Positions 501 to 47,065 are shown, counted from the first letter of the stretch. The stretch is 64,000 bases of DNA from Chamaesiphon sp. (GCA_965246715.1 CBDFFH010000005.1:224001-288000); one strand, 5' to 3'. Translations and numbers: made by a program. Notes: generated from the letters alone by a model not told the origin.

Positions 501-827
501 TTAGATCGATTTCTGAATAGCTTGGATATAAACTTTTTTCGGCTTGAGTCCGACAATTTTTTCAATTAGTCGATCGCCTTTGTATAAAACTACAGTTGGA
601 ACGCTACGAATACATAATTCGATCGCGAGATCTGGCTCCTCAGTCATATCTATTTCAACTAAATGAAAGTTACCATGTTGTTCGGTGGCGAGTTGATGTA
701 AAACAGGTCTGAGGGTATCGCAAGAGCTACAGTGCGGCGCACTAATTTCGAGCAAAATCAGTTTGTCGGATTCACTTTTTAATCGTTCAAAAGCGGCACC
801 ACCTTGGGAAAAAGTTTGAGCTGACAT
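501..827 (-). CDS. Thioredoxin resembling the NTRC Trx domain (atypical CSSC motif)
   Basis: APHCSSC motif, SVPT cis-Pro loop, GGAAFERLKSESDKLIL N-terminus. Confidence 0.8.
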   Translation of the reverse strand: MSAQTFSQGGAAFERLKSESDKLILLEISAPHCSSCDTLRPVLHQLATEQHGNFHLVEIDMTEEPDLAIELCIRSVPTVVLYKGDRLIEKIVGLKPKKVYIQAIQKSI

Positions 828-855
828 AAATAATTACCTCTAGATTATCTGTAAA

Positions 856-1803
856 TTAATGAATTTCTGCTAACCAACGTTCGGCTTCTAGTGCTGCCAT
901 ACAGCCCGTCCCAGCGGCGGTAATCGCTTGACGATAGATGTGGTCTTGGACATCTCCAGCAGCCCAGACTCCGGCAATATTAGTGGCTGTGGATTTACCA
1001 ATGGTTTTGATATAACCTTTGTCATCTAAATCTAAGCTGTCTTGAAAAAGTTGGGTGTTCGGTGTATGTCCGATCGCATAAAATAACCCACCTACTTTTA
1101 ATTCCGTAATTGTGCCAGAAGCTTGGCTCTGAATTTTCACACTCTGGAGCACATCATCACCATTAGCTTCGATCGGTAATGCTTGCCAATGCACTCGAAT
1201 TTTGTCGTGGTTTAAAACTCGTTTCTGCATAATTTTAGAAGCACGCAAGCGATCGCTTCTGACTAATAAATGAACTTTACTCGCATATTTTGTGAGATAT
1301 AGAGCTTCTTCTGCTGCCGAATCACCCCCACCAACTACGGCAATTTCCACATCTTTAAATAACGGATTTGTGCCATCACAAATTGCACAGGCAGAAATCC
1401 CATTATTCCAGAATTTATCTTCGCCAGGGATATATAATCGCCGTGCAGCTGCCCCAGTACAAATAATTACCGCCTGAGTTTTTACTTCGAGATCGTCAGT
1501 AGCGATCGAAAAAGGTCTTTGGCTAAAATCCACATTCACCACATCATCGGCGATCGATTTAGCACCCCACCGAATCGCCTGTTGGCGCATTTCTTTCATC
1601 AATTGTGGCCCTTGAATTCCCTCCGCAAATCCAGGGAAATTCTCGACTTCGGTAGTTGTCATCAATTGACCTCCGGGCAATCCTCCCGCTGCAAACCCTT
1701 CAAACATAATGGGTCGTAGTTGAGCGCGTCCGGCATAGATTGCTGCTGTATAACCTGCTGGTCCCGAACCAATTATCACTAGTTGTTCGATCGTGTTTTT
1801 CAT
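856..1803 (-). CDS. trxB: NADPH-dependent thioredoxin reductase (NTRC-type NTR module)
   Basis: [43 protein letters not shown] and QAITAAG motifs. Confidence 0.95.
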
Positions 1804-1806
1804 ATA

Positions 1807-2682
1807 TTAATTAGTCGGCAAAAACCACTGTACGCCAGTAAACACATAATAAATCCCTGCCAAAATCAAAGCCACACTCCCAAATTTGGTAATGCTTTCT
1901 GAATATTTCAATAGTAAGTTTGCTTGCTTGGCAAAACCAGTGAGTAAACTAGCTAAAAAGATAATGATGGTATAACCAAAGGCGTAACTTGCCATTGTTA
2001 ATACAGCAAGTAATTGCGAACCACTAGCACCTGCGGCGGCTAGCACTGCAAATAGAACCGGACTCGCACAGGGCGAACTAACTAAAGCAAAAGTCAAACC
2101 CACACCAAAGGGACCAAAATTAGCACCATCGAGATTAATTTCTGGCAAAGGAATCTTAATCCAGCCCATTAAACCAAAACCCATAATCAGAATAATCGCG
2201 CCGACAATGACATTAATATGTCCGCGATATTCCACCATTACCGTGCCAGCAAAAGAAGATGCTAAACCAAAGAGACTGAGGATAATAACATTTCCTAAAA
2301 CAAATAATCCAGCTTTAAGGAAAGCATCACCACGAGACTTAATATTACGGGTGCCGATATAGCTTAAATTAAGTGGTAATATTGCTAAAATGCAGGGAGA
2401 AACACTAGCAATTAAGCCCCCAATCAAAGCTAGTGGCATGAGTACGAGTGGATTGGCAGTATCTTGTTTAGAAAACCATTCTTGGTAGCGGTTTTCAACG
2501 AATGAAATCAGGTGTTCGAGTCCTTGAGAGATAGGGCCAGTAATCAGTAAAGCTAGTACTAATCCTAATAATCCTAGTCCGCCAAATATCAGCCATTTCC
2601 TAGGTAGCTTTTGAATGATTTTTTTAATTCCAACTGGTTGTGAATTGACATTAATGATGTCATGCTCTTGGTTTGGTTTCAT
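1807..2682 (-). CDS. ccdA: CcdA/DsbD-type transmembrane electron transporter
   Basis: SPCIL and SSPCASP cysteine motifs, multiple TM helices. Confidence 0.85.
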   Translation of the reverse strand: MKPNQEHDIINVNSQPVGIKKIIQKLPRKWLIFGGLGLLGLVLALLITGPISQGLEHLISFVENRYQEWFSKQDTANPLVLMPLALIGGLIASVSPCILAILPLNLSYIGTRNIKSRGDAFLKAGLFVLGNVIILSLFGLASSFAGTVMVEYRGHINVIVGAIILIMGFGLMGWIKIPLPEINLDGANFGPFGVGLTFALVSSPCASPVLFAVLAAAGASGSQLLAVLTMASYAFGYTIIIFLASLLTGFAKQANLLLKYSESITKFGSVALILAGIYYVFTGVQWFLPTN

Positions 2683-2712
2683 AATATTCTCCTGGAATTG
2701 CTAGAATATGTT

Positions 2713-2882
2713 TTACTTAGCGATCGCTACATCTAAAACCTTGGTATAAGCATCTATGGCGGGATTGTTACGATGCTGTGCTAAGATATTTCCCGTTGCT
2801 GGATCGACAATAGTTAGGGAACCAGTTTGAGTTTTATTTGTGGCTAAAAATTCGCTGAGTCCTAGTTCTTTAGCTTTCGCTA
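2713..2882 (-). pseudogene. 5'-deleted second copy of the exported thioredoxin gene
   Basis: AKAKELGLSEFLATNKTQTGSLTIVDPATGNILAQHRNNP matches the C-terminus of 2969..3469; the WCPAC region is absent. Confidence 0.8.
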
Positions 2883-2968
2883 TAAAAGGTAGCGTTAACA
2901 AATGAATCGATCGGATGTATTTCTGGACTCGATCGAGCAGCCAAGTCCAGAAACATCCAGACAACCTG

Positions 2969-3469
2969 CTACTTGCTGGCTAGGGCTGTATCCAATACAC
3001 TTGTATAATCAGCTTTGTTAGGGTTATTACGATGTTGTGCCAAGATTTTGCCCGTAGCTGGATCGACAACAGTTAGCGATCCTGTTTGAGTTTTATTAGC
3101 AGCAAAAAACTTACTGAGTCCAAGTTTTTTAGCTGTTGCTTCAGCTTTGGCAGCACTGGATTTATCAGACACATCTAAGACGACAAAATTAACTTTACCT
3201 GCATATTGTTGTTTCAGTTGGGAGACAGTAGGCGCAATATTTTTACAAGCAGGACACCAACTAGCGTAAATATCCACAACTACTGGTTTGCCTTGCAATT
3301 GTTGAGCGAGTGGCCCACCCACAGAACTTGCAGAACTACTATTTTTAGCAGCACAAGGATTAACTTTCGAGGCACAAGGATTGGCGACAGAGCTAGATGA
3401 ATTGACTGCTACAGCTCCCAAGCTAAGTAGAGAGATAATCGCAAAAGTGGCTAGAGACTTAATTTTCAT
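2969..3469 (-). CDS. Exported thioredoxin-like protein
   Basis: Signal peptide, NPCA repeats, WCPAC active site; likely start MKIKS. Confidence 0.85.
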   Translation of the reverse strand: MKIKSLATFAIISLLSLGAVAVNSSSSVANPCASKVNPCAAKNSSSASSVGGPLAQQLQGKPVVVDIYASWCPACKNIAPTVSQLKQQYAGKVNFVVLDVSDKSSAAKAEATAKKLGLSKFFAANKTQTGSLTVVDPATGKILAQHRNNPNKADYTSVLDTALASK

Positions 3470-3615
3470 GATTTTTCCTAGATAGAAGAAAGTAAACCGA
3501 ATCAAACAACCGAAAGATCCTGAGTCCGAACATGGATATGCCGCGATCGAACTTTACAGGATGGTTGTTTAGTTTGAAGTGACTGCCTGAAATATTAGGC
3601 TTGCCGATGAACTTA

Positions 3616-3871: not shown

Positions 3872-4498
3872 ATGTCAAATTGCGATTGGTTAGTTACAAA
3901 TGAGAGTCAATGCGTGCCTTTAGAAGGTAAAGCACAATCGATCGCGACCAAAACATATTGGGCGGAAAAACCTTATCGGCTCCATCGCTTTCTCACTGAT
4001 GTTGAGGATATTATTTGGCACGAAAGTGACGATCGAGTGCGGCTCCAAAAAATCTGTCCGTTAGTCCGCAGATTACTTAATAGCTCGGAATGGATCTTAA
4101 CCAATTTTTCGCACCCCGATCCTGAAACTGGGTGGTCGGTTCAGCTTCATTATGACGAACCGGATTTCCCAATTACCGTTCAGACAGTGGTGTGGTCGCC
4201 CCAGAGTGTTTCTCCCATCCACAATCATGCTAGCTGGGGAATTGTGGCGATGTTAGACGGACAGGAGCAGAATACCTTTTATCAACGATCGCCGACATCA
4301 GAATTACCCGATTTCATCGATCGAACCGGATCGCACCTGCTAACTCCAGGTGATATTCTCTGCTTGATGCCAGAGGCAATTCACCAAATTAAAGCGAACG
4401 GTGATGAACCGACGATTAGCTTTAATGTCTATGGCGTGACTGACTACGATCGACGCTTTGAATTTAATTTAGAACAGCATACTGCGGCTATTTTCTAA
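3872..4498 (+). CDS. Cysteine-dioxygenase-like cupin
   Basis: SPIHNHASWG and downstream AIHQ give a three-His cupin site; TAATG overlap with the kinase gene. Confidence 0.8.
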   Translation: MSNCDWLVTNESQCVPLEGKAQSIATKTYWAEKPYRLHRFLTDVEDIIWHESDDRVRLQKICPLVRRLLNSSEWILTNFSHPDPETGWSVQLHYDEPDFPITVQTVVWSPQSVSPIHNHASWGIVAMLDGQEQNTFYQRSPTSELPDFIDRTGSHLLTPGDILCLMPEAIHQIKANGDEPTISFNVYGVTDYDRRFEFNLEQHTAAIF

Positions 4499-5937
4499 TG
4501 CACCATTCATTCATCAAAGCGATCGGTAATGTATTTGGCAAACGAATTTCACCAACTTCGCTTCAGTTTCGCTTGAGTGTCGAATCGATCGCCATCGCGA
4601 TCGTTAGTTTGAGTTGTGTCTCCCTTTGGGCTGGTTGGAGAATGGAGCAAACATTGATTACCACCAATAAACAGCTCCTGGAATATATCGCGACTCGCTT
4701 TCCCGAACAAGTGGAAATGTATATGGAGACTGGCGGATTGGCAGCGGGGATCGAACGCACAACCAAAAAGGTGACGACATCAGGATTAGCGATTTTAGTC
4801 CAGAGTCCCGATGGGCGGCTGCTGGGTAAGTCCGCAAACAATGATTCAGCTCCCGATAACGCCCAGATTATTAAATCGATCGTGGTACCGACAACTCCCC
4901 AAATAATTCAGTTTCGCGGACGTTCGATCGTCCTGTGCGGTAACGATCTGATGATTAATAGTAAATTAGTCGGTAAAGTCTATCTTTCCAAAGACGTTAC
5001 CACCGAACAGAATGACCTCAATCAGAGTATCTATGGTTTGGCGATCGTCAGTATTTTGGCAACCGCGATCGCGATCCTCGCGATCGTTCACCGCGTTCGC
5101 AAAACTCTAGATCCCCTTGCCCAAATTAGCCATATTGCCAGTGTGGTATCGATCGAAGATCTGAAATCATCTTCACTCCAACTCGATCGCGCACCCGATG
5201 AAATTCAAGGATTAGTCAGAGCTTTTAATCAGATGCTGCTGCGATTATCCGCGACTTGGGAACAGCAACGTCAATTTGTGGGCAATGTATCGCACGAATT
5301 ACGCACACCATTAACCACGATCGGCGGCTATCTCCAAAGTTTACTGCTCAGGGGCGATAATCTGAGTACTTATCAACAACAAGCGATCGCCACCGCTAGT
5401 GCTGAAACCACGCGTACCATTCAAATGCTCCAAGACTTGCTAGACTTAGCCAGAGCTGATAGTGGCAATTTGCACTTTCGTCAAAGTCCGGTATTTCTGA
5501 ATACATTGCTAGTCGAAGTAGCTGCTATGAGCGAAAATGTCAGCGGTCGATCGGTGAAACTACTACCAACCGATTATGATGTTGTCGCTTTAGCCGACCA
5601 AGATCGACTCCAGCAGGTATTAATCAATTTAGTGGATAATGCGATTAAGTACTCAGCAGATGCTGTCGAGATTAAACTCGAAACTAGAGACAATCTGGCG
5701 ATCGTCCAGGTGTGCGATCGGGGGATTGGGATTCCATTAGAGCATCAAAGTCGGATTTTTGAGCGGTTTTATCGGGCTGATGGAGCTGAAACTCGCTCTA
5801 GGGATGGTACTGGTTTAGGACTAGCGATCGCCAAAAGCTTAATTGAAGGCATGAATGGTAAGATTACGCTGCAATCGCAACCAAACGCAGGTTGTACTTT
5901 TACGATCGCTTTACCGATCTGGAAATCTCAATCATGA
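4498..5937 (+). CDS. Membrane sensor histidine kinase (HAMP-HisKA-HATPase)
   Basis: Two TM helices, SHELRTPL, NLVDNAIKY, DRGIGI, GTGLGL. Confidence 0.95.
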   Translation: MHHSFIKAIGNVFGKRISPTSLQFRLSVESIAIAIVSLSCVSLWAGWRMEQTLITTNKQLLEYIATRFPEQVEMYMETGGLAAGIERTTKKVTTSGLAILVQSPDGRLLGKSANNDSAPDNAQIIKSIVVPTTPQIIQFRGRSIVLCGNDLMINSKLVGKVYLSKDVTTEQNDLNQSIYGLAIVSILATAIAILAIVHRVRKTLDPLAQISHIASVVSIEDLKSSSLQLDRAPDEIQGLVRAFNQMLLRLSATWEQQRQFVGNVSHELRTPLTTIGGYLQSLLLRGDNLSTYQQQAIATASAETTRTIQMLQDLLDLARADSGNLHFRQSPVFLNTLLVEVAAMSENVSGRSVKLLPTDYDVVALADQDRLQQVLINLVDNAIKYSADAVEIKLETRDNLAIVQVCDRGIGIPLEHQSRIFERFYRADGAETRSRDGTGLGLAIAKSLIEGMNGKITLQSQPNAGCTFTIALPIWKSQS

Positions 5938-6614
5938 AGGAACATATTCTGTTAGTTGAAGATGACCCCAAATTGGCAGAGTTTATTGCAGCAGAACTCA
6001 GTTTGGAAGGTTATCGAGTGACAATTGCTACTAGTGGTATGGAGGGATTGACGATCGCTCGCGATACGCCACCAGATTCGATCGTTTTAGATTGGATGCT
6101 GCCGGAAATGTCGGGATTAGATGTTTGTCTGCGGTTGCGAAAAACAGGCTGTAAGATCCCAATTATCATGCTGACTGCTAAAGATGAAGTACCCGATCGA
6201 GTTACTGCCTTGAATGCTGGAGCCGATGACTATCTCACCAAACCTTTTAGCATTGCCGAACTGATTGCCAGGATTAATGCCAGACTCCGGCGGATGTATC
6301 CAGTACTTGATGACAATTTGCAATTTGAAGATCTGAGCTTAAATCGGCTCTCGCGAGAAGTCTATCGTGCCGAACAAAGGATCGAACTTACTGCCAAAGA
6401 GTTCGACTTACTCGAATTTATGTTGCGGCATTTGCAGCAAGTCTTGACTCGCGAACAAATCCTGGAAGCCGTCTGGGGTTATGACTTTGTGGGCGAATCA
6501 AATATCATCGAAGTCTACATTCGCGCGCTGCGGATCAAATTAGAAGTAAGTAATTCTAAGCGACTCTTGCATACAGTGCGCGGCGTTGGTTACGTCTTAC
6601 GCGATCGGGGTTGA
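5934..6614 (+). CDS. OmpR-family response regulator
   Basis: LLVEDD, LDWMLP, GADDYLTKPF, LHTVRGVGY; ATG overlaps the kinase stop. Confidence 0.95.
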   Translation: MKEHILLVEDDPKLAEFIAAELSLEGYRVTIATSGMEGLTIARDTPPDSIVLDWMLPEMSGLDVCLRLRKTGCKIPIIMLTAKDEVPDRVTALNAGADDYLTKPFSIAELIARINARLRRMYPVLDDNLQFEDLSLNRLSREVYRAEQRIELTAKEFDLLEFMLRHLQQVLTREQILEAVWGYDFVGESNIIEVYIRALRIKLEVSNSKRLLHTVRGVGYVLRDRG

Positions 6615-13924: not shown

Positions 13925-15240
13925 GGTGATTCCCGATAAAGAACATACCAGTTAGGCAGGGCGGATCAGAATGTCCCATTTAGGGAGTAGTGGGTTCCTT
14001 TCTAATCTTTTTTCCACTTCTTTCATTGCTGATTTATTGAGTGAAATACCTTTTTGATAAATCTTACTATTTAATTGAATAATAGGATGCAATCCTTTCC
14101 AGGTCATACTCTCTGCCCATGCTAGCATGGCTGATACATTTAATAACTTTGCCCCATTCCAATGCTTTTCTAAAACTCCCCAGCATCTTTCAATCGGATT
14201 ATATTTGCTGTGATAAGGTGGATAATAGATTAGGTGAATAGATTTACCAATTTTATCTGAAAAGTCTACCATTCTTTTTAAGAACTGAGTTCGCACACCA
14301 CTGCTTTCAGGGCCATTATCCACCTTAATTTGGATCTTCTCGATCGTCTGCTGCTGTTCCAGTAGAAGTATGTCCCACCAGTCCTGTAATGTGTCTGCAA
14401 TAAAATCACTTGTTTTATAAGAGCTACCAAAACTAATCTGTAAAGCTCCAGTATCTTCATCAACGATTCCACATGGGATATATTTTTCTTCACAGCCCAT
14501 GTCATGGTCATTAGCTTGATTATCTCCTCTAGTTTTCCCCCCTCTACTTAAATTTCCAATATTGACTTTCGCTTTGCAGTCAATACTTAATCGTTTGATT
14601 CTCTTTGATTCTAACTGTTTTTGATGCTGGTTGATGTTCTCGAAGATATCGTTGGTTTCTGCAATTTTTTTTGAGGCTTTGCTTTCACTACTTTTCTGAG
14701 CCGATAGCCCGTTCGATTTAAAACTTCTATCATCGTACTCAGCGATGGCAATTGCTCCGGCATATAACCCTGTTGGGCTAATTGTTTGAGGGCTTCTGCC
14801 GCTGTTAATCGTGTATACGCAATCGTTGTTGCAAATGTTGGATCTTGTTGCGAATGTGACTCTGCTAATTTTTTCAGTGAATCAGCAACTTCTGGTTGTT
14901 TTTCCTCCCATCTTTTTGCCCCACTAAAGCCTGTTTGCGCTCCTACACAGATAATTCCAGTTCGTTTCTCTGCTAACCCTAGTGCTACAGTTTCTCTACT
15001 CCAACCAAATATCCTCTCTGTCAATCTAGCGTTTCCTTGGCAATATTTAATTGCCATTTCTGCTTGAAAGTAACGACGTTTTACACCGCTTAATTTAGCA
15101 GAAGCTAGCCGTAAATCTTCTCTTTGGCTACTACTTAACGTGAGTTCGGTTTTATTGCTAAACAATACTACTATCTTCCTTTCTTCGGCTTACCAATAAA
15201 ATAGTACTATAACTGGGTGGCTTTTTTATCGGGAATCACC
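13925..15240 (-). mobile_element. ISAzo13-family insertion sequence (1316 bp)
   Basis: 16-bp TIR ggtgattcccgataaa / tttatcgggaatcacc; 3-bp TAA duplication. Confidence 0.9.
13952..15165 (-). CDS. ISAzo13 transposase (two ORFs joined at an A8 run, likely -1 frameshift)
   Basis: orfA ends KPQKK at A8 near 14665-14672; orfB has IDCKAKV, DNGPESSG and YYPPYHSKYNPIER. Confidence 0.85.
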
Positions 15241-19773: not shown

Positions 19774-19992
19774 GTAGCAAGTGTGCAGAAACTGCCGTTA
19801 AGCTTGTAGCCTAGTCACAGCAATCATTTCAATGATGGATTTTTCTGAGGATAAAACTGTACCAATTAAACTAAGATCTATTTGGTACACCGATCGCTAC
19901 GAGATTTCGGTAGTTTCAGGGTGCTAAATCTCAGAGGGTTTAATTGGTACAATCCTTAGCGGCACTTTTGGCACAGATGCTACTTAAACACC
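19765..19992. mobile_element. MITE-like element with long imperfect terminal inverted repeats
   Basis: ggtgtttgagtagcaagtgtgcagaaactgccgttaag versus reverse complement of right end ggtgtttaagtagcatctgtgccaaaagtgccgctaag. Confidence 0.7.
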
Positions 19993-20033
19993 TAGCACTA
20001 AAACTCGTTATTAAGCATAGATTCAGATTGAAT

Positions 20034-20762
20034 CTAGAAGCCTTTGACTAATTTGGGAAACTCTTGGCGGAGTCGATCGAGTTTGGGTAAGTCGTTGACG
20101 ACGATGTAGGGATATGTTGGATTGCGGGCGAGAAAGTTTTGATGATGCTCTTCGGCTGGATAAAACTTCTGAAGTGGAGCCATCTGCGTGACGATCGGTT
20201 GGGGGAAAACGTGAGATTTATCTAGTTGACTGATATAAGCTTTGGCAACCCGTTGCTGCTCGCTATTGGTAAAGAATATTGCCGATCGATATTGCCTGCC
20301 TGAATCGGGGCCTTGACGGTTCAATTCGGTTGGATCGTGGGCTACCTTGAAAAAGACATTTAGCAACTGCTCGTAAGAGATTTGCTTGGGATCGTAGGTA
20401 ATTTGGACAGCCTCTGCATGTCCGGTTTCACCATCACTGACTGTTTCATAGTTAGCAGTATCTTTGCTACCGCCAGAATAACCAGAAACAACATTAGATA
20501 CCCCTTTGATGTGCTCGAATACTGCTTCTACACCCCAGAAACAGCCACCAGCAAACACGGCAGTTTGTAAACCTCTAGTTTTGGTGGGAGCAAGTGCGAT
20601 CGTGGAGTCGTTAATTAAACTCGAATTTGCTGATGCAGCATCTGGGATTGTAGATGCGGCAGTGGCAGTAGATATCGTTGAATGAGAGCCGCGATAAGCA
20701 GCCACTGTACCAACCGATAATAATGTAATAAACAGGCCAGTCGAGATGTGACGTAATAACAT
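20034..20762 (-). CDS. msrA: Methionine-S-sulfoxide reductase with signal peptide
   Basis: [24 protein letters not shown]; hydrophobic N-terminal leader. Confidence 0.95.
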
Positions 20763-20944
20763 CAGTGTGAGTGAATATGTAAAATTTGGATCGATGGATA
20801 ACTTGGTTGTAAGACTCTAGATCTGGATAGAAAGTTCAGATGATTAGCTGCTAATCTAAGAGTACTTAAAAATCGTGGAGTCTATTACTGGGAAAAGTGT
20901 GAGTTGGAGAAAATATTACCCAATTGAAGATGTATTTTAGCGAT

Positions 20945-20992
20945 TCTCGTTGCGAGAGGCTTCTGCTAAGGCAGAGGCTTCGCCAACGCCAA
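20945..20992 (-). repeat. Nested SDR5-like insertions
   Basis: gcgat[tctcgttgcgagaggct(tctgctaaggcagaggcttcgccaa)cgccaa]cgg. Confidence 0.75.
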
Positions 20993-20995
20993 CGG

Positions 20996-21490
20996 TTATG
21001 CGGGGATAAACTTCATCGCCACACCATTCATGCAATACCGCAACCCAGTCGGTTTCGGCCCATCTTCAAAGACATGACCTAAATGTCCGCCACACCGCCG
21101 ACAATGAACTTCCGTCCGCTGTTCGCCAAATGCTGTATCAACCGAAGTAGCGATCGCATTGGGAATCGGTGCAAAGAAACTCGGCCATCCCGTCCCGCTA
21201 TCAAACTTGGTGTTCCAGGTAAATAAGGATAAATTACAAGCAGCACAGGCAAAGGTGCCATGCCGATGTTCTTCGGTGAGGGGGCTGGTACCAGCCCGTT
21301 CCGTACCCTGTTTCCGTAACACGTCAAACTGGGCGGGTGTTAATATTTTGCGCCACTGAGCTTCAGTTTTCACAATTTGAAATTTAGTGGCTGCATTCAC
21401 CACTGGTTGCGATCGTTTATCTAGAAAATAGATTGTAGCCGCAGTACCGATCGCGATCGGTACTGTTGTTAATAATGTTCGTCTTTTCAT
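20996..21490 (-). CDS. msrB: Methionine-R-sulfoxide reductase with Tat-like leader
   Basis: CAAC, KFDSGTGWPSF, CRRCGGHLGHVF, RYCMN; MKRRTLL leader. Confidence 0.95.
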   Translation of the reverse strand: MKRRTLLTTVPIAIGTAATIYFLDKRSQPVVNAATKFQIVKTEAQWRKILTPAQFDVLRKQGTERAGTSPLTEEHRHGTFACAACNLSLFTWNTKFDSGTGWPSFFAPIPNAIATSVDTAFGEQRTEVHCRRCGGHLGHVFEDGPKPTGLRYCMNGVAMKFIPA

Positions 21491-21511
21491 CTGTTTTAAT
21501 TAGATCGATCC

Positions 21512-21920
21512 TTATTTCGACTTGGATTCATCTTTTTTCATGGCATCAACCTTTTTTGTCTTTCATGGCAACTCGACCTGATTCTCATAGCAAATACTAG
21601 TCAGATTTTGCCATTTTAGCAATGGCATCGCCATTAGGTAATTGTCTTTCATGGCATCTTTCATAGCGTCACCTGTTGGTTGATTCTTTTTGACAGCAAT
21701 TACATAATCTGGTGATTTCTCGCTGACATCCCATTGCATCAATTGTATACATCTGTCTAAGGCATTAATCAACTGCAATGCAGTTGTTGACTTTTGGACT
21801 TGCTGCCCAAGCACTGACCGTAGAATTTCAGAGCAAGATGCAAGCCCAGCCATAAGTAGCAGTATCGTGAGATGGAGATCGAAGCCATTTTTTTCTGGTG
21901 AGTAGAGTATCTGTTTCACG
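21512..21920 (-). pseudogene. Decayed MXKDX lipoprotein copy carrying an ISAs1-like transposase fragment
   Basis: LLLMAGLASCS lipobox and GDAMKD remnants match 22053..22301; DYVIAVKKNQP segment near 21680-21830. Confidence 0.75.
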
Positions 21921-22052
21921 ATCGTGTCGATTGGGTTTTTTCCCCCGTCAAAACCCTTGTATTTGTTTCTATGTTTATCAGTCTAAGCTTTCATACTTTT
22001 CGTAATTCAAATCTCTATCTAAATCTCACCCTGCCCTGAATCAATAATGTAC

Positions 22053-22301
22053 TTATTTTTTGGATTCATCTTTTTTCATGGCATCGCCTTTTTTGTCTTT
22101 CATGGCATCACCTTTCATAGCGTCGCCTTTCATGGCATCGCCTTTTTTGTCTTTCATGGCATCACCTTTCATAGCGTCACCTGTTATTGATGTCGGTGAA
22201 GCTGTCTCTGTCGTTGTAGTTGTTGGTGGAGTAGCAGAGCAAGATGCAAGCCCAGCCATAAGTAGCAGAATGGAGATCGAAGAGAGTAGAGTACGTTTCA
22301 C
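22053..22301 (-). CDS. Pentapeptide MXKDX-repeat Met-rich lipoprotein
   Basis: LASC lipobox, Thr/Pro linker, six GDAMK repeats; likely GTG start. Confidence 0.85.
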   Translation of the reverse strand: MKRTLLSSISILLLMAGLASCSATPPTTTTTETASPTSITGDAMKGDAMKDKKGDAMKGDAMKGDAMKDKKGDAMKKDESKK

Positions 22302-22347
22302 GATCGGTCTGGGGGTCAAAACCCTTGTGTTTGTTTCTATGTTTATC

Positions 22348-22413
22348 AGTCTAAGCTCTCTATCTAAATCTTCCCTGAATCAATAATGAGAAATTCCTGA
22401 GAATCTATTGAAA
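22348..22413 (-). promoter_or_regulatory. 11-bp-period hexamer boxes plus -10
   Basis: tttcaa-N5-tctcag-N5-tctcat-N5-attcag-N5-atttag-N10-tagact. Confidence 0.65.
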
Positions 22414-22461
22414 TATCGGTAGACCCTACAATTAGCAAACTTATACATATACCTGAAGAAA

Positions 22462-22504
22462 GATCGCACTGAGCTGTTCCATCTGGAAATAGTTCAGTGC
22501 GATC
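22462..22504. terminator. Hairpin between the MXKDX genes
   Basis: gatcgcactgagct...agttcagtgcgatc. Confidence 0.5.
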
Positions 22505-22675
22505 GATTTAATTAAACCTCAAACTAACCCCAAATTTGTCCGTTAACTTTCCTAATCTCTGCATCGGCGAGATAACTCCTGTAACTAGTTCAGAGCAGTT
22601 ACTAATCAGGATCGTCTATTTTAAAGTGGGCGATCGATCGAGTAGCCGTTCTCTGTCTAAGGCTGGTACTTACAA

Positions 22676-22921
22676 TTATCCTTTTTTTGCAGTTTTTTTC
22701 TTCATGGATTGACCTTTCTTCATCGCGCTACCTTTTTTCTTCATGGCATCGCCTCTCATAGCATCGCCTTTTTTCATGGCATCGCCTTTCATAGCATCGC
22801 CTTTTTTCATGGCGTCACCGCTTTGCATTGCGTCACCTGCGGATGCAGGTGGAGTAGCAAGGTAAGCTTGACCGACAAATACTGACAGAATAGCGATCGA
22901 AGATAGTAAAACACGTTTCAT
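22676..22921 (-). CDS. Pentapeptide MXKDX-repeat Met-rich secreted protein
   Basis: Sec signal ending PASA; GDAMK/GDAMQ repeats. Confidence 0.85.
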   Translation of the reverse strand: MKRVLLSSIAILSVFVGQAYLATPPASAGDAMQSGDAMKKGDAMKGDAMKKGDAMRGDAMKKKGSAMKKGQSMKKKTAKKG

Positions 22922-22965
22922 GATAATTATGTGGGTCAAAGCCCTTATTTGTCTCCAGCCCTGTT

Positions 22966-23020
22966 AGTTTAATATCTCTATCTAAATCTCTCCTGAGCAA
23001 ATGATGAGAAATTCCTGAGA
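22966..23020 (-). promoter_or_regulatory. 11-bp-period hexamer boxes plus -10
   Basis: tctcag-N5-tctcat-N5-gctcag-N5-atttag-N10-taaact. Confidence 0.65.
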
Positions 23021-23041
23021 ATTAAGTTGAATTTAGTAATA

Positions 23042-23400
23042 CTCACATCTTGCACCAATGCATAGATACTATAATTAGAGCGAGACTAATTCCAACGTTA
23101 GCCTTTGAGATGCCAGCAGCTCTCGTTTACTCTCTATTTCTATCAGCAGTAAACTTATTGCGGTTTTTGGCAATAGCTGCTGTAGTGTCAACAGTGTAGC
23201 CTCTTGCCAATCAGGCAAATTGCCAGGGCGCAATGACAAATAAACCCTGCTAGGCGGGTCCCCCGCCCAGCAGTGAGTCAGCACAAAACTAATCAAGCTA
23301 AGTATGAGCCAACGATAGACCCCCAATAAGGTCTGCTGACCAAAGCTAACCAACCCAAATTGATATTTGGCAGTCTTGAAATCATAGGTCAATTTACGCC
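23042..23400 (-). mobile_element. IS701-like transposase 3' remnant
   Basis: FKTAKYQFGLVSFGQQTLLGVYRWLILS; end-like ctcacatcttgcacc. Confidence 0.7.
23248..23271. repeat. 24-bp hairpin micro-insertion in the IS remnant
   Basis: tgctaggcgggtcccccgcccagc; removal restores HWVYL on the minus strand. Confidence 0.65.
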
Positions 23401-23723
23401 GCTCTGTACTAGAAGCGAATTTGTGACAATTCATGATATCCATTGGGGAATTGAAAGGTTTCACAGAGCCATCAAACAAGTATGTGGCATTTGTCGATTC
23501 ATGGTGAGAGATAGTCAAGCAATCAAAACACATATATTTTGTTCGCTGCAAGCATTTGTTCGTTTAGAAAAAATGCGCTCTCTTGACCTCATTTCTAATT
23601 GGTATGAATTGCAAAGAAACTTATTCACTTTAGTTGTACGTGATTATATTGTAGAAAATCTTACCAATACTTGTGCTGCTTAACGTACATAAATAAGATT
23701 TTTTGTCAATGCGTAAGTCCTAA
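23400..23723 (+). mobile_element. Second IS701-family 3' remnant
   Basis: HWGIERFHRAIKQVCGI...HIFCSLQAF; end-like gtcaatgcgtaagtccta. Confidence 0.75.
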
Positions 23724-24802: not shown

Positions 24803-27469
24803 TTATCCAAGTTGGTCAACTTTCCCGCACTGCTCAATCAGTTCGGCTACTAAACCCGTCCAACCTGTCTGATGGCTTGCGCCGAGTCCTGCGCCGTTAT
24901 CGCCATGAAAATATTCATGGAAAAGAATTAGATCGCGCCAATGGGGGTCTGTTTGAAACGTTTTCATGCCGCCATAGCAGGGTCTGCCACCTGACTTATC
25001 CTGAAGAAAAATCTGGATTAGCCTTTGCGACAATTCTGTTGCGACTTCCTTGAGGTTCATCTCTTTGCCAGAACCAGTCGGGCATTCTACTTTGAAATCG
25101 TCGCCCAAGTAGGAATAAAACCTTTGGAGTGACTCGATAATCAGGTAATTCATGGGAAACCAAATCGGTCCGCGCCAGTTGGAATTGCCACCAAACAAAC
25201 CTGAGCAAGATTCTGCCGGTTCGTAATCCACGCGGTACTCTTCTCCCTCTACCTTAAAGATGTACGGATGCGAACCATGAAATTTAGAAACAGAGCGGAT
25301 ACCATAGGGGCTTAAGAATTCGTTTTCATCAAGCATTTTGTGCAGGATACGCCGGAGTCGCTCTTGATATGGGATCGCCAGTAGTCTTCTAGCACCGCTA
25401 CCTGGTGTTTCCATGCAGGGAACGTTTTGTTTGAGGTCAGGGTGCTTTTTAATAAACCATTCCAGGCGCTGTTCAAAGCCTGGGAGCATCTTCAACGTTT
25501 CTGGTTCCAGGATTTCAACCGCAAATAGTGGAATTAGCCCCACCAGCGATCGCACTTTCATGGAGAAAGGACGGTCATTGGGCAAATGCAGTACATCGTA
25601 GTAAAAGCCATCGTCTTCATTCCAAAGCTTTACCTCTGATTCGCCGATCCGGTTCATCGCATCAGCAATATAAAGAAAATGTTCAAAAAACTTAGTGGCG
25701 ATATCTTCGTAACAAGAATTTTCCTTTGCTAGTTCCAGCGCGATCGTCAGCATGTTTAGACAGTACATTCCCATCCAGCTAGTGCCATCTGACTGGTCTA
25801 TGTGTCCACCCGTAGGCAGTTCCATATTTCTATCAAAAACACCAATATTGTCTAATCCTAAGAAACCACCCTGAAACACATTCATTCCCTCTGCATCCTT
25901 ACGGTTCACCCACCACGTGAAGTTGAGCAGCAACTTCTGAAAGACGCGCTCCAGAAAACCTCGATCGGCGCGACCATAAATTTTTTGCTCGATCGTGTAG
26001 ACACGCCACGCCGCCCAAGCATGAACGGGGGGGTTGACATCACTAAAATCCCATTCATAGGCTGGTAGCTGACCGTTGGGATGCATATACCATTCCCGTG
26101 TCAATCGATCTAGTTGCCGCTTGGCAAAGTCAGGGTCGATCATCGCCAGCGGAATGACCTGAAAAGCCAAATCCCAGGCACCAAACCAGGGATATTCCCA
26201 TTTATCTGGCATGGAGAGAATCTCATCACTAAACAGATGAATCCATTCGGAGTTTCTAATACATTTGCGTGACTCTGGTGGTCGTGGAGCGGTGGAATCG
26301 CCTTTTAGCCACTCTTCCACGTCATAGTAATAAAGTTGTTTACTCCACAACATACCGGCGAAAGCTTGTCGCTGTACATTACGTCTATCTTTGGACAAAC
26401 TGGGAGAAGAGACGCGATCGTAAAATTCATCGGCTTCGCGTTGGCGATTTTGGAAGATTGTTTCAAAATTAGTGCCTAACGGTTCCGCTAAATCTTGATA
26501 GTCACTTAGTCGTAGCCGAACTGTTTTTGTTTGACCTGCACCAACTTTCACCAAATAATGCAATGAGGCTTTTGTTCCGGTCTGAGTTGGATTTACGGCT
26601 GAGTGCTGACCGCGTACAACGTAATCGTTGATTCCATCTTTGACATAGGGCGATAAATTGCTGACTTCAGATAGTCTTTCCGAGTTGGTTTCGTTTTCTG
26701 TAAACAAAATCTCCTCTGAATGTTCAGAATGCAGCCATCTTTTTCCGAGGGTTGGATGAGAGGCTTCTATCACACTAAAGTTAATGTTAGATTGAGTCCA
26801 CTTAAGAGAAGGCTTATCCTCACTGTTATTCCAAGACCAAGTATTCCGAAACCAGAGGGTTGGTAAAAGATGCAGGGTTTTCTCTTCAGGTCCTCGGTTG
26901 ACAACACTGATTTGAATCAGAATATCTTCTGATGAACTTTTGGCGTACTCTACAAAAACATCAAAGTAACGCCCGTCAGCGAAGACGCCAGTATCAATTA
27001 ATTCAAATTCTGGGTCTTTATAACCTCTGCGCTTATTTTCTTCAACTAACTGAGAATAGGGAAATGCTCGTTGCGGATATTTGTAAAGACATTTCATATA
27101 GGAGTGGGTAGGAGTGTTGTCAAGATAAAAGTAATGCTCCTTTACGTCTTCTCCATGATTGCCCTCATTACTTGTTAAACCAAAGAGCCTTTCTTTCAGA
27201 AAGGGATCTTCACCATTCCAGAGTGCGATCGCAAAACAAAGTCGCTGATGGTTATCAGAAATTCCAGCAATACCATCTTCACCCCACCGATAAGCGCGGG
27301 AACGAGCCTGATCGTGCGGGAAATAGTCCCAAGCTGAACCATCCGGGCTGTAATCCTCTCGTACTGTTCCCCACTGCCGTTCACTCAAATATGGCCCCCA
27401 CCGCCGCCAATGAGCTTTGCGATCGCGGTTTTCTGCCAACCTTTTTTCTTCCTGGGTCATGTTTTTCAT
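24803..27469 (-). CDS. GH63 (MGH1-like) glycoside hydrolase
   Basis: [42 protein letters not shown]. Confidence 0.9.
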
Positions 27470-27507
27470 GATTGATTTAATTCCTCACCGAATTGGTATG
27501 AGTTCTG

Positions 27508-28311
27508 TCACTCGGGATGATGCGGGGCTTTACATTGCTTGTAAATACAGTGGGCGTGGGGAACGTGAAACAGTTTTCCGGTAATGATTTCACGCTTGCC
27601 ACGATAAAGCAGACGGAAGGCAACCACCGATAATACTGCCCCTAAAGTTGGCGCAACGAAATACAGCCACTGATCCCGCCAGAATCCAGAGACTAAGGCG
27701 GGTCCGAAGCTGCGGGCTGGATTCAGACCTGTGCCAGAAATTGGGGCTGTCAACCGGACTGTGAAGGCGATTAACAGCCAGGTCATCAGGGGTGTCCAGT
27801 GCATGAGCCGACGGCTACTGACAAAGATTAAGATTGACAGTACCAGCAAAAAGGTAATAAAGACTTCTACCGCGAATACATACCAAAGGGCGTACTCCGG
27901 TTGGGGCAGCGTCGCCCCGTTTTCAACGGTAGCGGCATAATCTCCCCAAATCGTTACTAATAGCACTGAACCAAAGATTGCGCCCAGGAATTGGGCAACC
28001 ATGTATCCTGCTGCATCTAAAAAATTCATTTTGCCCTGAATCCAAAAAGCCAATGAAACTACAGGATTTATGTGGGCACCACTAAGCTTGCCCAGTGGGG
28101 TAATCGCAAACAGTGAGCCACTGCCAGCAAACAGCAGTCCTGTAAGCATTAGACGACCACCCATACTAGGGATAATTTGCTCTACAGGAGAATTTTCACC
28201 GAGATTGAAGACGACGGCGCTCAGTCCAGCGAAGATTAGAAATGCGGTTCCGAGAAATTCGGCAAGATATTCAGCCCAGTTTAGTCGTCGCCACCATCTA
28301 AAATTCATCAT
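27508..28311 (-). CDS. MIP/aquaporin-family channel (NPV/NPA)
   Basis: SGAHINPV and GLNPARSFGP; His/Cys-rich tail. Confidence 0.9.
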   Translation of the reverse strand: MMNFRWWRRLNWAEYLAEFLGTAFLIFAGLSAVVFNLGENSPVEQIIPSMGGRLMLTGLLFAGSGSLFAITPLGKLSGAHINPVVSLAFWIQGKMNFLDAAGYMVAQFLGAIFGSVLLVTIWGDYAATVENGATLPQPEYALWYVFAVEVFITFLLVLSILIFVSSRRLMHWTPLMTWLLIAFTVRLTAPISGTGLNPARSFGPALVSGFWRDQWLYFVAPTLGAVLSVVAFRLLYRGKREIITGKLFHVPHAHCIYKQCKAPHHPE

Positions 28312-28374
28312 TTTTTTTCACTAAGTGAGGGAGCATTAAATAGAAAAGATTCAACTAGGACGCTCTCTTAAAAA

Positions 28375-29328: not shown

Positions 29329-29364
29329 TGATTAAAACCCTGCAACTACACTCGATCACGAAAA

Positions 29365-30909: not shown

Positions 30910-30973
30910 TTTTTTCCTCCGTAACTATTATGCCGATCGAGTCCACTGAGAAAATGATTTGCACATTAACAGG

Positions 30974-32616: not shown

Positions 32617-32644
32617 GATGAAATCTCCTGTTGGTGTTTGAGTG

Positions 32645-35066: not shown

Positions 35067-35110
35067 AGTATGACAGTCAAATCTGAGATAATCCTGAGAA
35101 ACAGATAAGA
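35067..35110 (-). promoter_or_regulatory. 11-bp-period hexamer boxes plus -10
   Basis: tcttat-N5-tctcag-N5-tctcag-N10-catact. Confidence 0.65.
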
Positions 35111-43552: not shown

Positions 43553-44266
43553 TTAAATGCCACCAAACCATTCATAGCCTTGGTCTTCCCAATAGCCACT
43601 TCGTCCCGTGGGTATCTGACTGCTAAACGTCACCTGTGTTACCCATTTAGATTGTTTATAGCCCAATTTAATCGGTGCGGCGAGGCGGATTGGTGCGCCA
43701 TTATCGATCGGTAGTGGTGCCCCATTCTTACTACTTGCAAGTAGAGTCTGAGGGTGTAGAGCCGAAGCTAAATCCCAACTTTCATAATATTTATCCGCCG
43801 ACTGAAAGATGACATATCGCACACTCGGCTTGGGTTTGACCAGCATCGCTAAATCCCGCAATCTGACTCCACCCCATTGCACGATCGCCGCCCAACCTTC
43901 CACGCAGACGTGTTGAATTACCATTGACGCTTGGGGAAGTTTATTCAATTGTGGGAGCGAAAGCCTAATTGGATTATCTACTTCACCATCAATTATCAAT
44001 CGATAGGCATCCAAATCCAGTTTTGGATTGCCTTCAGCACTATTGATAATCAAAGCTTTAGGATCGATCGCACTCACCGGATATTCAGGAATGAGTAATT
44101 GGGGTTTAACTAATAATTCCTCGAACGGTTGATTCAGCGGTTCGGTAAGATTACCGATCCGTTCGGCAAGTTTATCGTCACTACAACTGCTAAGTAAATA
44201 ACCGATACCAGACATTCCCAGTAGTTGCAGGGTTTGCCGACGATTGAGCCGAGCGGGAAGAATCAT
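43553..44266 (-). CDS. Sulfite-oxidase-family molybdopterin oxidoreductase (MsrP/YedY-like), Tat lipoprotein
   Basis: LNRRQTL, LSSC, HVCVEGW, NGAPIRL, LGYKQSKW, GYWED. Confidence 0.85.
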   Translation of the reverse strand: MILPARLNRRQTLQLLGMSGIGYLLSSCSDDKLAERIGNLTEPLNQPFEELLVKPQLLIPEYPVSAIDPKALIINSAEGNPKLDLDAYRLIIDGEVDNPIRLSLPQLNKLPQASMVIQHVCVEGWAAIVQWGGVRLRDLAMLVKPKPSVRYVIFQSADKYYESWDLASALHPQTLLASSKNGAPLPIDNGAPIRLAAPIKLGYKQSKWVTQVTFSSQIPTGRSGYWEDQGYEWFGGI

Positions 44267-44267
44267 A

Positions 44268-44301
44268 AAATTATAAATTATGAGTTATGAATTATGAATT
44301 A
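44268..44301. repeat. STRR-like heptamer tandem repeat
   Basis: aaattat aaattat gagttat gaattat gaatta. Confidence 0.6.
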
Positions 44302-44901
44302 CCAGGGACGAAACATCGATTGAGTTAACTTCAATCCACCAGCCTTAATCCCCATGATTAGATGAACCAAGATAAATATTAAAGAAATCGGTACGGTCAA
44401 AAAATGTACCGTGCGAAGAATTTGCCAATTGATAAATAAGCCAGAGAGCAAATGCAATTGAGCTGGTTTATACATCGCTAAACCTGACGTAATTGCCAGG
44501 AGCATGACAGGGATAATTCCTGTATAAACCAGTCGATGCCAAGCATAAGTCTTTCGTTTGGGATTTTGACCGACTTGCAATGCCTTGAGATCTTGATCGG
44601 AAAAGAACCGTTTTTTCCACCGTTGAGTGAGAAAAATATAAATTCCATAAATCAGCAAGGTAAAGGCAAACACCCACATCACAGCAAAGTGCCAATCTCT
44701 ACCACTAGCCAAATAACTACCTAAAGTCGCCCATTTCGGTATATGCCAACCGGCTCTCCCGCCAAACACCGGATTAGCATTATAAATCGTTAACCCGCTG
44801 CCCATCATCATCAACAAGCTGATAATTAACAAACCATGCAGAATTTTGATAAAAGTCTGCTGTTGGGGCAGTGGTGGAGATTTAGGTTTCTGCTTATTCA
44901 T
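44299..44901 (-). CDS. Cytochrome b subunit (hydrogenase/thiosulfate reductase b-type), partner of the Mo enzyme
   Basis: Four TM helices with His ligands (LHG, WHF, VHF, VHL). Confidence 0.8.
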   Translation of the reverse strand: MNKQKPKSPPLPQQQTFIKILHGLLIISLLMMMGSGLTIYNANPVFGGRAGWHIPKWATLGSYLASGRDWHFAVMWVFAFTLLIYGIYIFLTQRWKKRFFSDQDLKALQVGQNPKRKTYAWHRLVYTGIIPVMLLAITSGLAMYKPAQLHLLSGLFINWQILRTVHFLTVPISLIFILVHLIMGIKAGGLKLTQSMFRPW

Positions 44902-44932
44902 TTTATTGTCATTCGATTAAATGCTAAAAAAC

Positions 44933-45625
44933 TTAGATGGGTAACTTGGGAAATAGTGGTAACAACCACAATTGGATCTCAACATCCCAACCTAATAAAA
45001 TCGCGATCGCGGTGCCTGTCATCAAAATCCCACCAATTCGTTGCAACTTAGCAGTATGCGGAATTATCCATCGCCAAGATTGACTGAGATACCGACTAGT
45101 ATAAGCCAAAATCAGTAAGGGAATTCCCGCTCCTAGCCCGTAGAAAGTTAATAAGATTAAAGCAGCTAAAATGTCATGTTTGACGGCTGCTAAAACTAAA
45201 ATACTCCCTAATGCGGGGCCAGCGCAGGGAGTCCAGAGCAAGCCTAATTGCGTCCCGATCGCAAATTCGCCCCACAAGTTCGGTTGCTCTGGCTCTCGAA
45301 AATTACCAAATTGCCAACGGCTAAATACCCAATAACTCAACTTGGGGAAAATTGATAACAGACCAAAGAAAATTAGTGCAGCGATCGCGACACCACGTAA
45401 TATATTTGCAAATCCAGCGAACCATGAACTAGCAATTCCGAGTAGGCTACCGATCGCGGCAAACCCACAGATTAAGCCCGCAACTAATGCGATGGGGCCA
45501 AATCGATGAGTTTTAAAAGACCGTCCTAAAACTAACGGTAAGATCGGCAGCACACAGGGAAAAATAATTGTTAATAATCCTCCCAAGATAGCCAGACTTA
45601 AAGAGCCGAATGATACTCCATTCAT
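44933..45625 (-). CDS. CcdA-family protein (DipZ membrane half)
   Basis: PCVLPILP and WTPCAGP. Confidence 0.85.
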   Translation of the reverse strand: MNGVSFGSLSLAILGGLLTIIFPCVLPILPLVLGRSFKTHRFGPIALVAGLICGFAAIGSLLGIASSWFAGFANILRGVAIAALIFFGLLSIFPKLSYWVFSRWQFGNFREPEQPNLWGEFAIGTQLGLLWTPCAGPALGSILVLAAVKHDILAALILLTFYGLGAGIPLLILAYTSRYLSQSWRWIIPHTAKLQRIGGILMTGTAIAILLGWDVEIQLWLLPLFPKLPI

Positions 45626-45631
45626 GCTGTG

Positions 45632-46225
45632 TCACCCTAATAACTGACGAATTTTAGTTTCGGTTTCAGCGTAAGCACCTTCGCCAATATGGTCGTACAC
45701 GATTTGACCCTGGCGATTGGCTAAAAATAAGTGCGGCCAATATTCATTATTGTAAGCCTTCCAAGTTTCAAAGCCGTTATCTACCGCGACGGGATACTTA
45801 ATATGGCGTTTACTTACTGCTTGTTTGATATTACCTAGCACGCGCTCGTAGGGAAATTCGGGCGTGTGTACGCTGACGATCTTTAAACCTTTGTCAGCAT
45901 ATCGATCGTGCCAACCGACTAAATGCGGGATAGTCGCCTGACAGTTGCTACAGGCAAATGTCCAGAATTGGAGCAAGACAACATTCCCACGTAAACTCGC
46001 CAGTGTAAGCGGTTCGGTATTGATCCAATTGCTAATTCCTTGGAGTTCTGGCAGGGTTTTACCAGCAGATTCGAGCGCTATTTCATTACTGGGTGCTGCG
46101 GATGTGGGAGCGAAGGTTTTGGCGTTAGATGGTGCTGGTTGCAATTTCTGTCCGATGGTAGTGGCGATGCCAGCACCAACGATGCCTAATCCTAAGTATT
46201 TGAGAATGTCGCGTCTGTGGCTCAT
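45632..46225 (-). CDS. Tat-exported thioredoxin-like protein (DipZ redoxin half)
   Basis: RRDILK leader, FWTFACSNC, VHTPEF, YWP. Confidence 0.85.
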   Translation of the reverse strand: MSHRRDILKYLGLGIVGAGIATTIGQKLQPAPSNAKTFAPTSAAPSNEIALESAGKTLPELQGISNWINTEPLTLASLRGNVVLLQFWTFACSNCQATIPHLVGWHDRYADKGLKIVSVHTPEFPYERVLGNIKQAVSKRHIKYPVAVDNGFETWKAYNNEYWPHLFLANRQGQIVYDHIGEGAYAETETKIRQLLG

Positions 46226-46482
46226 AAAATTTACCTATCAATCGAGATTTATCTTTAAAACTACAAGATGGAATTACAGTTTAGCTGTCTAACTAAAACC
46301 GATCGAGATATTGACAAACTACGTGTTGAATTAAGTCACCAGCGATAATTAAATACAAAATAGCGTGTAGGATTGGGACTCTCAGGTATCTAGGTTCGAT
46401 CGTCATCACTTGGTTGTGGCTAATTGTGCTTCATATCCTACTTAACTTATTACCTCCCCACAGCTACGAGTGAGCTAGCTAA

Positions 46483-46851
46483 TTATTTGACTTCTGCGGG
46501 TGCGAACATTTCGACTTTACCCTTTCTCAAGGCAACTACTACGTCATAGTGAGCGCAGTAGGAGAAAGTATAATCATTAGTCTTGTTGTACAAATTCACT
46601 ACATGACCGCCGCCACCAACCTGAATCCCAATTGGTTCGAGTTCGCCGAAGAAGAACCGACGGAGCGCGTCACCACCACCAAATTTCCCTTTTTCTTGGG
46701 TAATTAGAGCGATTTTTTGGTCGAAACTAAGTCCGGTAACGTCTTGAGCGTGAGCGGTACCGAACTGAGGATTGACCAAAGAATCGGGTACTCCAGCGAG
46801 GGTCGTGATGCCAACTAGGAATGCAATTGCCAAAGAACTAACTGCTTTCAT
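46483..46851 (-). CDS. Hypothetical secreted protein (paralog of 47676)
   Basis: Signal peptide; PIGIQ.GG.G.VVNLY...C...DVVVA...EVK. Confidence 0.75.
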   Translation of the reverse strand: MKAVSSLAIAFLVGITTLAGVPDSLVNPQFGTAHAQDVTGLSFDQKIALITQEKGKFGGGDALRRFFFGELEPIGIQVGGGGHVVNLYNKTNDYTFSYCAHYDVVVALRKGKVEMFAPAEVK

Positions 46852-47065
46852 GTTCGATCTCCAATTTAGTTAAGTAATTGTTTCCAGCACGTCTTGGCTG
46901 GGTATGTCTTAATTATTAACTGGAAATTTGGGTCTTAAATTAGCAGTGGTTAAGGGATAACTGTGTGGATGATGAGAGTTTTAGGGAGTAATCTTTAGGA
47001 ATTTCTCAGCAAATTCTCATCTAATCGTGTTCACATTACCGTAAAACCAGTTTTATCGTTAGTTA

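Follow-up and report, generated by a model that had tools for sequence, protein, structure and literature searches.

The methionine-rich peptide MrpX of Azospira suillum PS (20% methionine, 44% charged residues) is induced and oxidised by reactive chlorine, and its mutants show mild defects; hypochlorite oxidises methionine at 3.8e7 per M per s versus about 1e-2 for H2O2, and reduction of the peptide by the molybdoenzyme YedY is, in the available part of the report, proposed and not assayed (PMC4436054). Its homologue in Brucella melitensis, BcrX, is an MXKDX repeat protein, the type after which family TIGR02953 is named, and belongs to the HOCl-induced operon BcrXQP, for which the accessible text describes a triple deletion only (PMC8315932). 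Two-component control of a peptide-reductase operon was shown for c3566-c3568 and OrhK/OrhR in uropathogenic Escherichia coli (PMC8550376). A different route is established in Streptococcus pneumoniae, where electrons pass from CcdA through an exported thioredoxin (Etrx) to MsrAB (PMC3914529). Here we analyse 64,000 nucleotides of Chamaesiphon sp. (GCA_965246715.1, CBDFFH010000005.1:224001-288000; this whole stretch is called the window, and its genome G000), in which positions 20,034 to 22,921 carry genes for two small methionine-rich repeat proteins beside the methionine sulfoxide reductase genes msrB and msrA.

The original prediction described this locus as a cyanobacterial envelope version of the MrpX system and took the recycling of MrpX by a reductase as established; oxidation by hypochlorite stands, and the YedY step is the proposal mentioned above. 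Like MrpX-YedY1Z1, the locus ties a small, putatively exported, methionine- and charge-rich peptide to sulfoxide reductases, and the window holds a related cytochrome b–molybdoenzyme pair. In contrast to that system, thiol-type msrB and msrA come directly after the peptide genes in the window, one peptide is a lipoprotein, methionine is lower (10-15% of the mature part), and a direct-repeat motif takes the place of the SigF promoter (PMC4436054). The molybdoenzyme cassette lies 21 kb away, though with a shared motif, whereas mrpX sits in an operon with yedZ1-yedY1. Because operon and regulator differ, this is not the MrpX-YedY1Z1-SigF system; by analogy, it is nonetheless likely to work like MrpX. 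BcrXQP and c3566-c3568 differ in using only the molybdoenzyme of their operon (PMC8315932, PMC8550376). CcdA-Etrx-MsrAB2 offers the parallel of CcdA and an exported thioredoxin as the electron route to extracytoplasmic MsrA/MsrB, but there MsrAB is fused and the available part of the source describes no sacrificial peptide, whereas the window encodes separate enzymes (PMC3914529). The combination of mrpX, msrA and thioredoxins in cyanobacteria appeared in a table as early as 2015: Data Set S4 includes Cyanothece Cyan7822_1372 (mrpX; msrA, thioredoxins) and Gloeobacter gll1153 (mrpX), together with Gluconacetobacter GDI2760 (mrpX; msrA, msrB, thioredoxin) (PMC4436054). A literature search that left most subscription journals outside found no published study of a cyanobacterial methionine-rich peptide, or of one recycled by MsrA/MsrB. 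What is new here is a triple repeat of 11-bp period common to the peptide genes, a tlpA-ccdA-cytochrome b-molybdoenzyme cassette, a second msrA-msrB pair and a third peptide gene.

On the minus strand, the order is soluble repeat protein, lipoprotein, a mosaic segment, msrB and msrA (Table 1). Gene order and NCBIfam scores bear out the prediction of two intact GDAMK-repeat genes upstream of, and co-oriented with, msrB and msrA. In both peptides, a leader and short methionine-containing repeats can be seen by eye, and export of the peptides and of the Msr enzymes is likewise judged by eye from the leaders. The soluble protein has a leader ending in ASA and a mature part of 53 residues with 8 methionines (15%), 42% charged residues and six GDAM[KQR] units. 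The lipoprotein gene starts with GTG and encodes a mature part of 62 residues with 6 methionines (10%), 39% charged residues and six GDAMK units. Neither mature part contains histidine, or cysteine apart from the lipid site of the lipoprotein; glycine makes up 10-17%, and the mean hydropathy is about -1.2. By profile score, the soluble protein is a member of TIGR02953 (pentapeptide MXKDX repeat), and the lipoprotein is a relative and not a member, although several cyanobacterial lipoproteins with more repeats do reach the cut-off. The repeat unit is mostly MKGDA, and the strict MxKDx form occurs once in the lipoprotein and not at all in the soluble protein. No Pfam family matched either peptide. 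The structure model of the lipoprotein shows the leader helix and no other fold (mean predicted local distance difference test score, 56), which is weakly consistent with disorder without proving it. We rejected a regular pentapeptide beta-helix, as the repeats are 5 to 8 residues long and the model has no strands.

MsrB contains two zinc-type CxxC pairs (C82, C85, C130, C133) and the catalytic C153 (RYCxN), with no further cysteines, and all five are invariant in the 6 sequences compared. Its leader has an RR pair and a hydrophobic stretch; the twin-arginine model TIGR01409 gave no match at E<=1, and relatives often have KR. MsrA has a single, invariant cysteine, C74, and lacks one at the position where the closest solved MsrA carries GYCHI. 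Further leader-bearing copies of msrA and msrB lie elsewhere in G000.

A 29-row peptide alignment was searched against 401 genomes of the order, of which 61 matched. After removal of 3 own matches, 9 duplicates and 11 weak unscored ones from the 93 listed, and addition of 2 others, 72 places in 58 genomes were surveyed, 8 of which had supplied rows to the search alignment. TIGR02953 alone is insensitive in the phylum (7 of 401 genomes, with false matches among those inspected). Places with 5 or more methionines per 40 residues were classed as methionine-dense (45) and the rest as methionine-poorer (27); close relatives cannot be counted as independent, neighbours go unseen at contig ends, and paralogues probably account for some of the methionine-poor rows. 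Within 5 kb, msrA or msrB was found at 11 of the 45 methionine-dense places versus 1 of the 27 others, thiol-relay genes at 26 versus 4, and a molybdoenzyme at 22 versus 8; for any reductase nearby, the counts are 28 versus 8. Where the flanks reach at least 4 kb on both sides, msrA/B, molybdoenzyme and thiol relay are present at 7, 19 and 18 of 27 methionine-dense places versus 1, 7 and 3 of 21 methionine-poorer ones. The recurrence in relatives indicates that the arrangement of peptide and repair genes is more than chance. It also sustains the analogy with MrpX, as does the homology of MXKDX proteins to MrpX in Brucella. The survey that the original prediction had called for upholds its MsrA/MsrB version in part: the enzymes do adjoin the peptides, but the commonest neighbours are tlpA-ccdA and the cytochrome b-molybdoenzyme pair related to the YedZ1Y1 clade. 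An msrA or msrB gene without a molybdoenzyme, as around the window peptides, occurs at 6 of the 45 places, and at 4 of these the peptide itself has a C-terminal domain of the peptidoglycan-binding type (one tested with Pfam).

Methionine is kept across unrelated repeat units (GDAMK, SPDAMK and QGDTMK). Homologues with 0-2 methionines, made of DAVK/DATK repeats, keep the leader, the promoter and the position beside the molybdoenzyme. In a tree of 34 molybdoenzymes, three low-methionine loci (G596, G520, G625) form one supported clade (97/92), nested among methionine-richer loci. There the methionine count falls 4, 2, 0, no tlpA-ccdA is linked, and the queries used found no leader-type MsrA or MsrB. 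These sequences suggest that retention of methionine goes with retention of the thiol arm.

A CTCAG-type direct repeat with an 11-bp period precedes both peptide genes. The pattern occurs 11 times in the window versus 0.09 in shuffles, 3 of the 11 being the sites from which it was drawn, and 17 times in a 116-kb island (C5:224-340 kb) versus 0 for each of six other spacings; the remaining 6.0 Mb holds 10 sites (background 4-20). The matrix used for the scores in Table 1 was built from 40 sites of relatives only, picked with the same pattern and hence partly circular; the 99.9th percentile of the background is 13.7. The motif also lies ahead of the third peptide gene, the second msrA-msrB pair and two eamA-tlpA cassettes, and so ties the peptide genes to the second msrA-msrB and to the tlpA-ccdA-cytochrome b-molybdoenzyme runs. 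It is likely a response-regulator site; 11-bp direct repeats are bound by OmpR-type regulators, and kinase/regulator pairs are present in the island, with response regulators at window 5892-6614 and C5:332.7-333.4 kb.

Among the 72 places, 14 have the direct-repeat box and 23 others have AATCCA-N11-14-TYCGTA, never both. Genes for an extracytoplasmic function (ECF) sigma factor and an RskA-type anti-sigma factor adjoin 11 methionine-dense loci (L072, L077, L080-L084, L090, L102, L103 and L039), most with the latter element upstream. This ECF-like element has five matches in G000, none at the peptide or msr genes of the window. A fixed-spacing search for the ECF pattern found 0 of 132 loci, and a flexible version 31. 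The sigma-70 promoter scan gave 5 sites versus 9.1 in shuffles, fewer than chance, and no adjacent ECF sigma/anti-sigma pair of the SigF-NrsF type lies beside the window genes.

The original prediction had the Msr enzymes fed by the CcdA/thioredoxin pairs of the island. This can be kept for one pair, that of the 43553-46851 run, which shares the motif; the exported thioredoxin-ccdA pair at 1.8-3.5 kb does not (matrix score 4.1). G000 has three tlpA-ccdA-cytochrome b-molybdoenzyme cassettes, one of them in the window (43553-46225), and four molybdoenzyme copies. The window molybdoenzyme and cytochrome share 38% and 28% identity, respectively, with their counterparts on E. coli plasmid p666, which have the same yedZ-then-yedY order beside a gene for a methionine-rich peptide; the plasmid operon of that strain is the yedYZ-mrpX of a mobile clade (PMC4436054). 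The p666 peptide itself lacks GDAMK units, and its alignment to the cyanobacterial profile is very poor (probability 12.7%). Elsewhere in G000, a third methionine-rich lipoprotein gene (C5:304.9-305.2 kb) is flanked by genes for chlorite dismutase and an exported TlpA-like protein, at a locus (L001:8158-9960, C5:304.2-306.0 kb) whose chlorite dismutase scores 300 bits to PDB 5k8z. Chlorite dismutase genes adjoin peptide genes also in G015 and G020.

We hypothesize, with a confidence only slightly above even, that the peptides are rechargeable methionine decoys of the MrpX kind. Predicted to be exported and unstructured, one lipid-anchored and one soluble, they would soak up oxidants with their methionines in the periplasm or the thylakoid lumen, and the neighbouring MsrB and MsrA would re-reduce them. 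The co-regulated CcdA-TlpA relay would supply electrons, TlpA reducing the single-cysteine Msr enzymes directly, and the molybdoenzyme-cytochrome b pair would act as a parallel reductase. Direct reduction by thioredoxin is described for the sulfenic acid of a one-Cys peroxiredoxin (PMC8945050). The peptide genes would be induced via a two-component system. The oxidant may be a hypochlorite-type species, which is best supported in this genome; singlet oxygen is an alternative.

Several observations weigh against this hypothesis. The molybdoenzyme is a commoner neighbour of methionine-dense peptides than msrA/B. Leader-type MsrA/B occurs in 33 of 36 methionine-dense genomes but also in 16 of 22 methionine-poor ones, so the enzymes are not dedicated to the peptides, and three methionine-dense genomes lack leader-type MsrA and MsrB by the query used. 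The methionine-loss clade is a single event among kin that are not independent. Neither MsrA nor MsrB has a recognisable resolving cysteine, so recycling by TlpA would not follow the textbook route, and msrA, 233 nt past msrB, has no repeat motif of its own. Glycoside hydrolase and dehydrogenase genes have the motif upstream as well, which suggests a broader stress regulon. Chlorite dismutase was found in no more than 4 of 58 genomes, which limits the support for reactive chlorine to this genus. An RNA run (X1, share 0.06) yielded only pieces that were short or diverged, and is uninformative on expression.

The most direct rival keeps the methionine sinks but assigns most of their recycling to the molybdoenzyme-cytochrome b pair, in line with the proposal for MrpX-YedY1Z1; msrB and msrA would have been brought here by local shuffling within the regulon and would repair other envelope proteins. 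The 17 methionine-dense places that have a molybdoenzyme and no msrA/B nearby fit it, as do the resemblance of the window molybdoenzyme to that of the mrpX-linked p666 clade and the four copies in G000. We nevertheless regard it as unlikely: the methionine-poor homologues still sit beside the molybdoenzyme though without the thiol arm, with 121 of 401 genomes the enzyme is about twice as widespread as the peptide, for which 61 genomes gave a match of any kind, and the cassette is distant from the peptide locus.

Less likely again, in our judgement, is that the peptides are hydrophilin-like disordered stress protectants, with methionine incidental to an amplified repeat and a general stress regulon shared with the repair enzymes. 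Their glycine content and hydropathy suit such a role, which would also predict that homologues with 0-2 methionines keep leader, promoter and position, and the motif ahead of carbohydrate-active genes points the same way. Methionine density, however, tracks sulfoxide-repair neighbours, methionine persists across different repeat units, and MrpX is oxidised in vivo (PMC4436054). It is very improbable that the peptides serve to soak up Cu(I)/Ag(I) under the control of a two-component system that senses metals, a reading suggested by the island kinase, which scores best with a heavy-metal sensor model, below its cut-off. Methionine-rich periplasmic proteins do bind Cu(I) and Ag(I), but the peptides have no histidine and no mature cysteine beyond the lipid site, and no copper/silver efflux family turned up in a scan of 77 proteins, 73 of which had been selected out of 98 cluster representatives of unlabelled neighbours.

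If the decoy hypothesis is right, sacrificial-methionine defence would reach beyond the molybdoenzyme-based proteobacterial systems and include a form in oxygenic phototrophs that is thiol-based and in part lipid-anchored, and the motif, the candidate regulator and a natural methionine-loss lineage make the still-unproven recycling step testable. A wider and distinctly tentative idea is that, in cyanobacteria, the methionine-rich segment serves as a portable redox sponge, which may be free, anchored to lipid, or joined to a DM13 or peptidoglycan-binding domain. A CcdA-TlpA relay acting directly on single-cysteine MsrA/MsrB would be its main means of recharging, and a two-component or ECF/RskA system would switch it. 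Photosynthetic reducing power would in this way reach an oxidant sink in the envelope, and the unexplained DM13 domain would find a place in methionine-sulfoxide recycling; our literature search found no paper joining the two. A DM13 gene lies within 5 kb of 8 of the 45 methionine-dense places. At four loci (L099:9837-10250, L107, L110 and L130), the gene immediately preceding msrB or msrA encodes an exported methionine-rich segment joined to a peptidoglycan-binding domain, and at L034:9506-10126 a methionine-rich lipoprotein is fused to a DM13 domain directly after msrA.

The original prediction also counted a decayed third repeat gene, at 21500-22052. This did not survive closer comparison, and the segment is most likely a consensus or assembly artefact. 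Against the lipoprotein unit, 328 of 352 nt match, with 12 substitutions, 35 insertions (208 nt) and 4 deletions, whereas the two intact repeat units, aligned likewise, show 31 substitutions and balanced gaps. Ten exact colinear pieces of 12-36 nt from a 1,488-bp transposase element make up 237 of the 553 nt (500 random window stretches: mean 3.7, maximum 35). The element, which we take to be an ISAs1-type insertion sequence (IS), has 21 near-identical copies in the genome; the longest common subsequence of segment and IS barely exceeds shuffles (539 versus 518-529) and was given no weight. Such interleaving would be expected if reads with and without the IS had been merged into one consensus. 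In DNA run X2, possibly the source sample, contigs have zero differences at 19800-20980 and 22149-23069, with a 2-difference contig after the first. The contig at 21044-21566 carries msrB and an end that agrees with the 3' end of the intact lipoprotein gene at 50 of 51 nt; another contig, a diverged one, jumps from 21504 to 22112. No single contig covers the whole stretch, and missing read cover over the mosaic was not taken as proof. A genuine decayed copy would account for the presence of the segment in the assembly, and no contig covers all of it; set against the interleaved IS pieces, the surplus of insertions over substitutions and the intact lipoprotein-type end adjoining msrB in X2, this explanation is scarcely credible. 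With the artefact set aside, a lipoprotein-type stop lies ~20 nt ahead of the msrB start, and the genes probably follow one another as soluble peptide, lipoprotein, msrB ~20 nt on and msrA 233 nt on. Consensus artefacts may likewise underlie other seeming pseudogenes in this assembly, which is rich in IS copies, and mosaics of IS and gene that mimic a pseudogene are a trap when reading genomes.

Table 1. Features of the window, with positions counted from its first nucleotide
Feature	Position	Strand	Score or remark
Soluble methionine-rich repeat protein, Sec-type leader, 81 aa	22676..22921	-	TIGR02953 44 bits, cut-off 41
Methionine-rich repeat lipoprotein, 82 aa, lipobox LASC, Thr-rich linker	22053..22301	-	TIGR02953 23.4 bits, below cut-off
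Putative mosaic of lipoprotein unit and multi-copy IS pieces, not a gene	21500..22052	-	sequence comparison, run X2 contigs
MsrB, twin-arginine-like leader (MKRRTLL), GTGWPSF	20996..21490	-	TIGR00357 168 bits, cut-off 113
MsrA, hydrophobic leader, GCFWG	20034..20762	-	TIGR00401 186 bits, cut-off 108
Triple/quadruple CTCAG-type direct repeat, 11-bp period, upstream of soluble peptide gene	22982..23019	-	matrix score 24.9
Same triple repeat upstream of lipoprotein gene	22375..22401	-	matrix score 25.6
Same repeat motif upstream of tlpA-ccdA-cytochrome b-molybdoenzyme run	46994..47020	+	matrix score 25.6
Sensor kinase and response regulator, candidate motif regulator	4498..6614	+	kinase best model heavy-metal sensor family, below cut-off
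Co-oriented run: exported protein, TlpA, CcdA, cytochrome b561, molybdopterin oxidoreductase	43553..46851	-	likely electron supply, parallel reductase
Small exported protein	46483-46851	-	
TlpA-like thioredoxin	45632-46225	-	
CcdA	44933-45625	-	
Cytochrome b561	44299-44901	-	
Molybdopterin oxidoreductase	43553-44266	-	
Exported thioredoxin, CcdA, thioredoxin reductase, thioredoxin	501..3505	-	possible second relay

Transposase genes or fragments lie at 13952-15165, interrupting a chloride-channel-like gene, and at 23075-23683, just upstream of the peptide genes. In G020, the orthologous lipoprotein gene (L030:9897-10148) has an in-frame stop just ahead of the repeats, and a transposase gene lies between tlpA and ccdA. 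Near position 75668 of G000:C14 (minus strand), an exported protein with a methionine-rich Thr/Pro/Gly N-terminal linker may be another methionine-tagged protein. Duplicated blocks in the window (24803-42334 and 48309-63749) contain MGH1-like glycoside hydrolase, aquaporin, glyoxalase-like, ferredoxin-reductase and GMC-type and short-chain dehydrogenase genes, several of which carry the motif upstream. Among the strongest copies of the repeat motif are those preceding four small exported proteins without a Pfam or NCBIfam family (window 46483-46851 and 47676-48050, L003:5759-6124 and G000:C5:334.4-334.8 kb).

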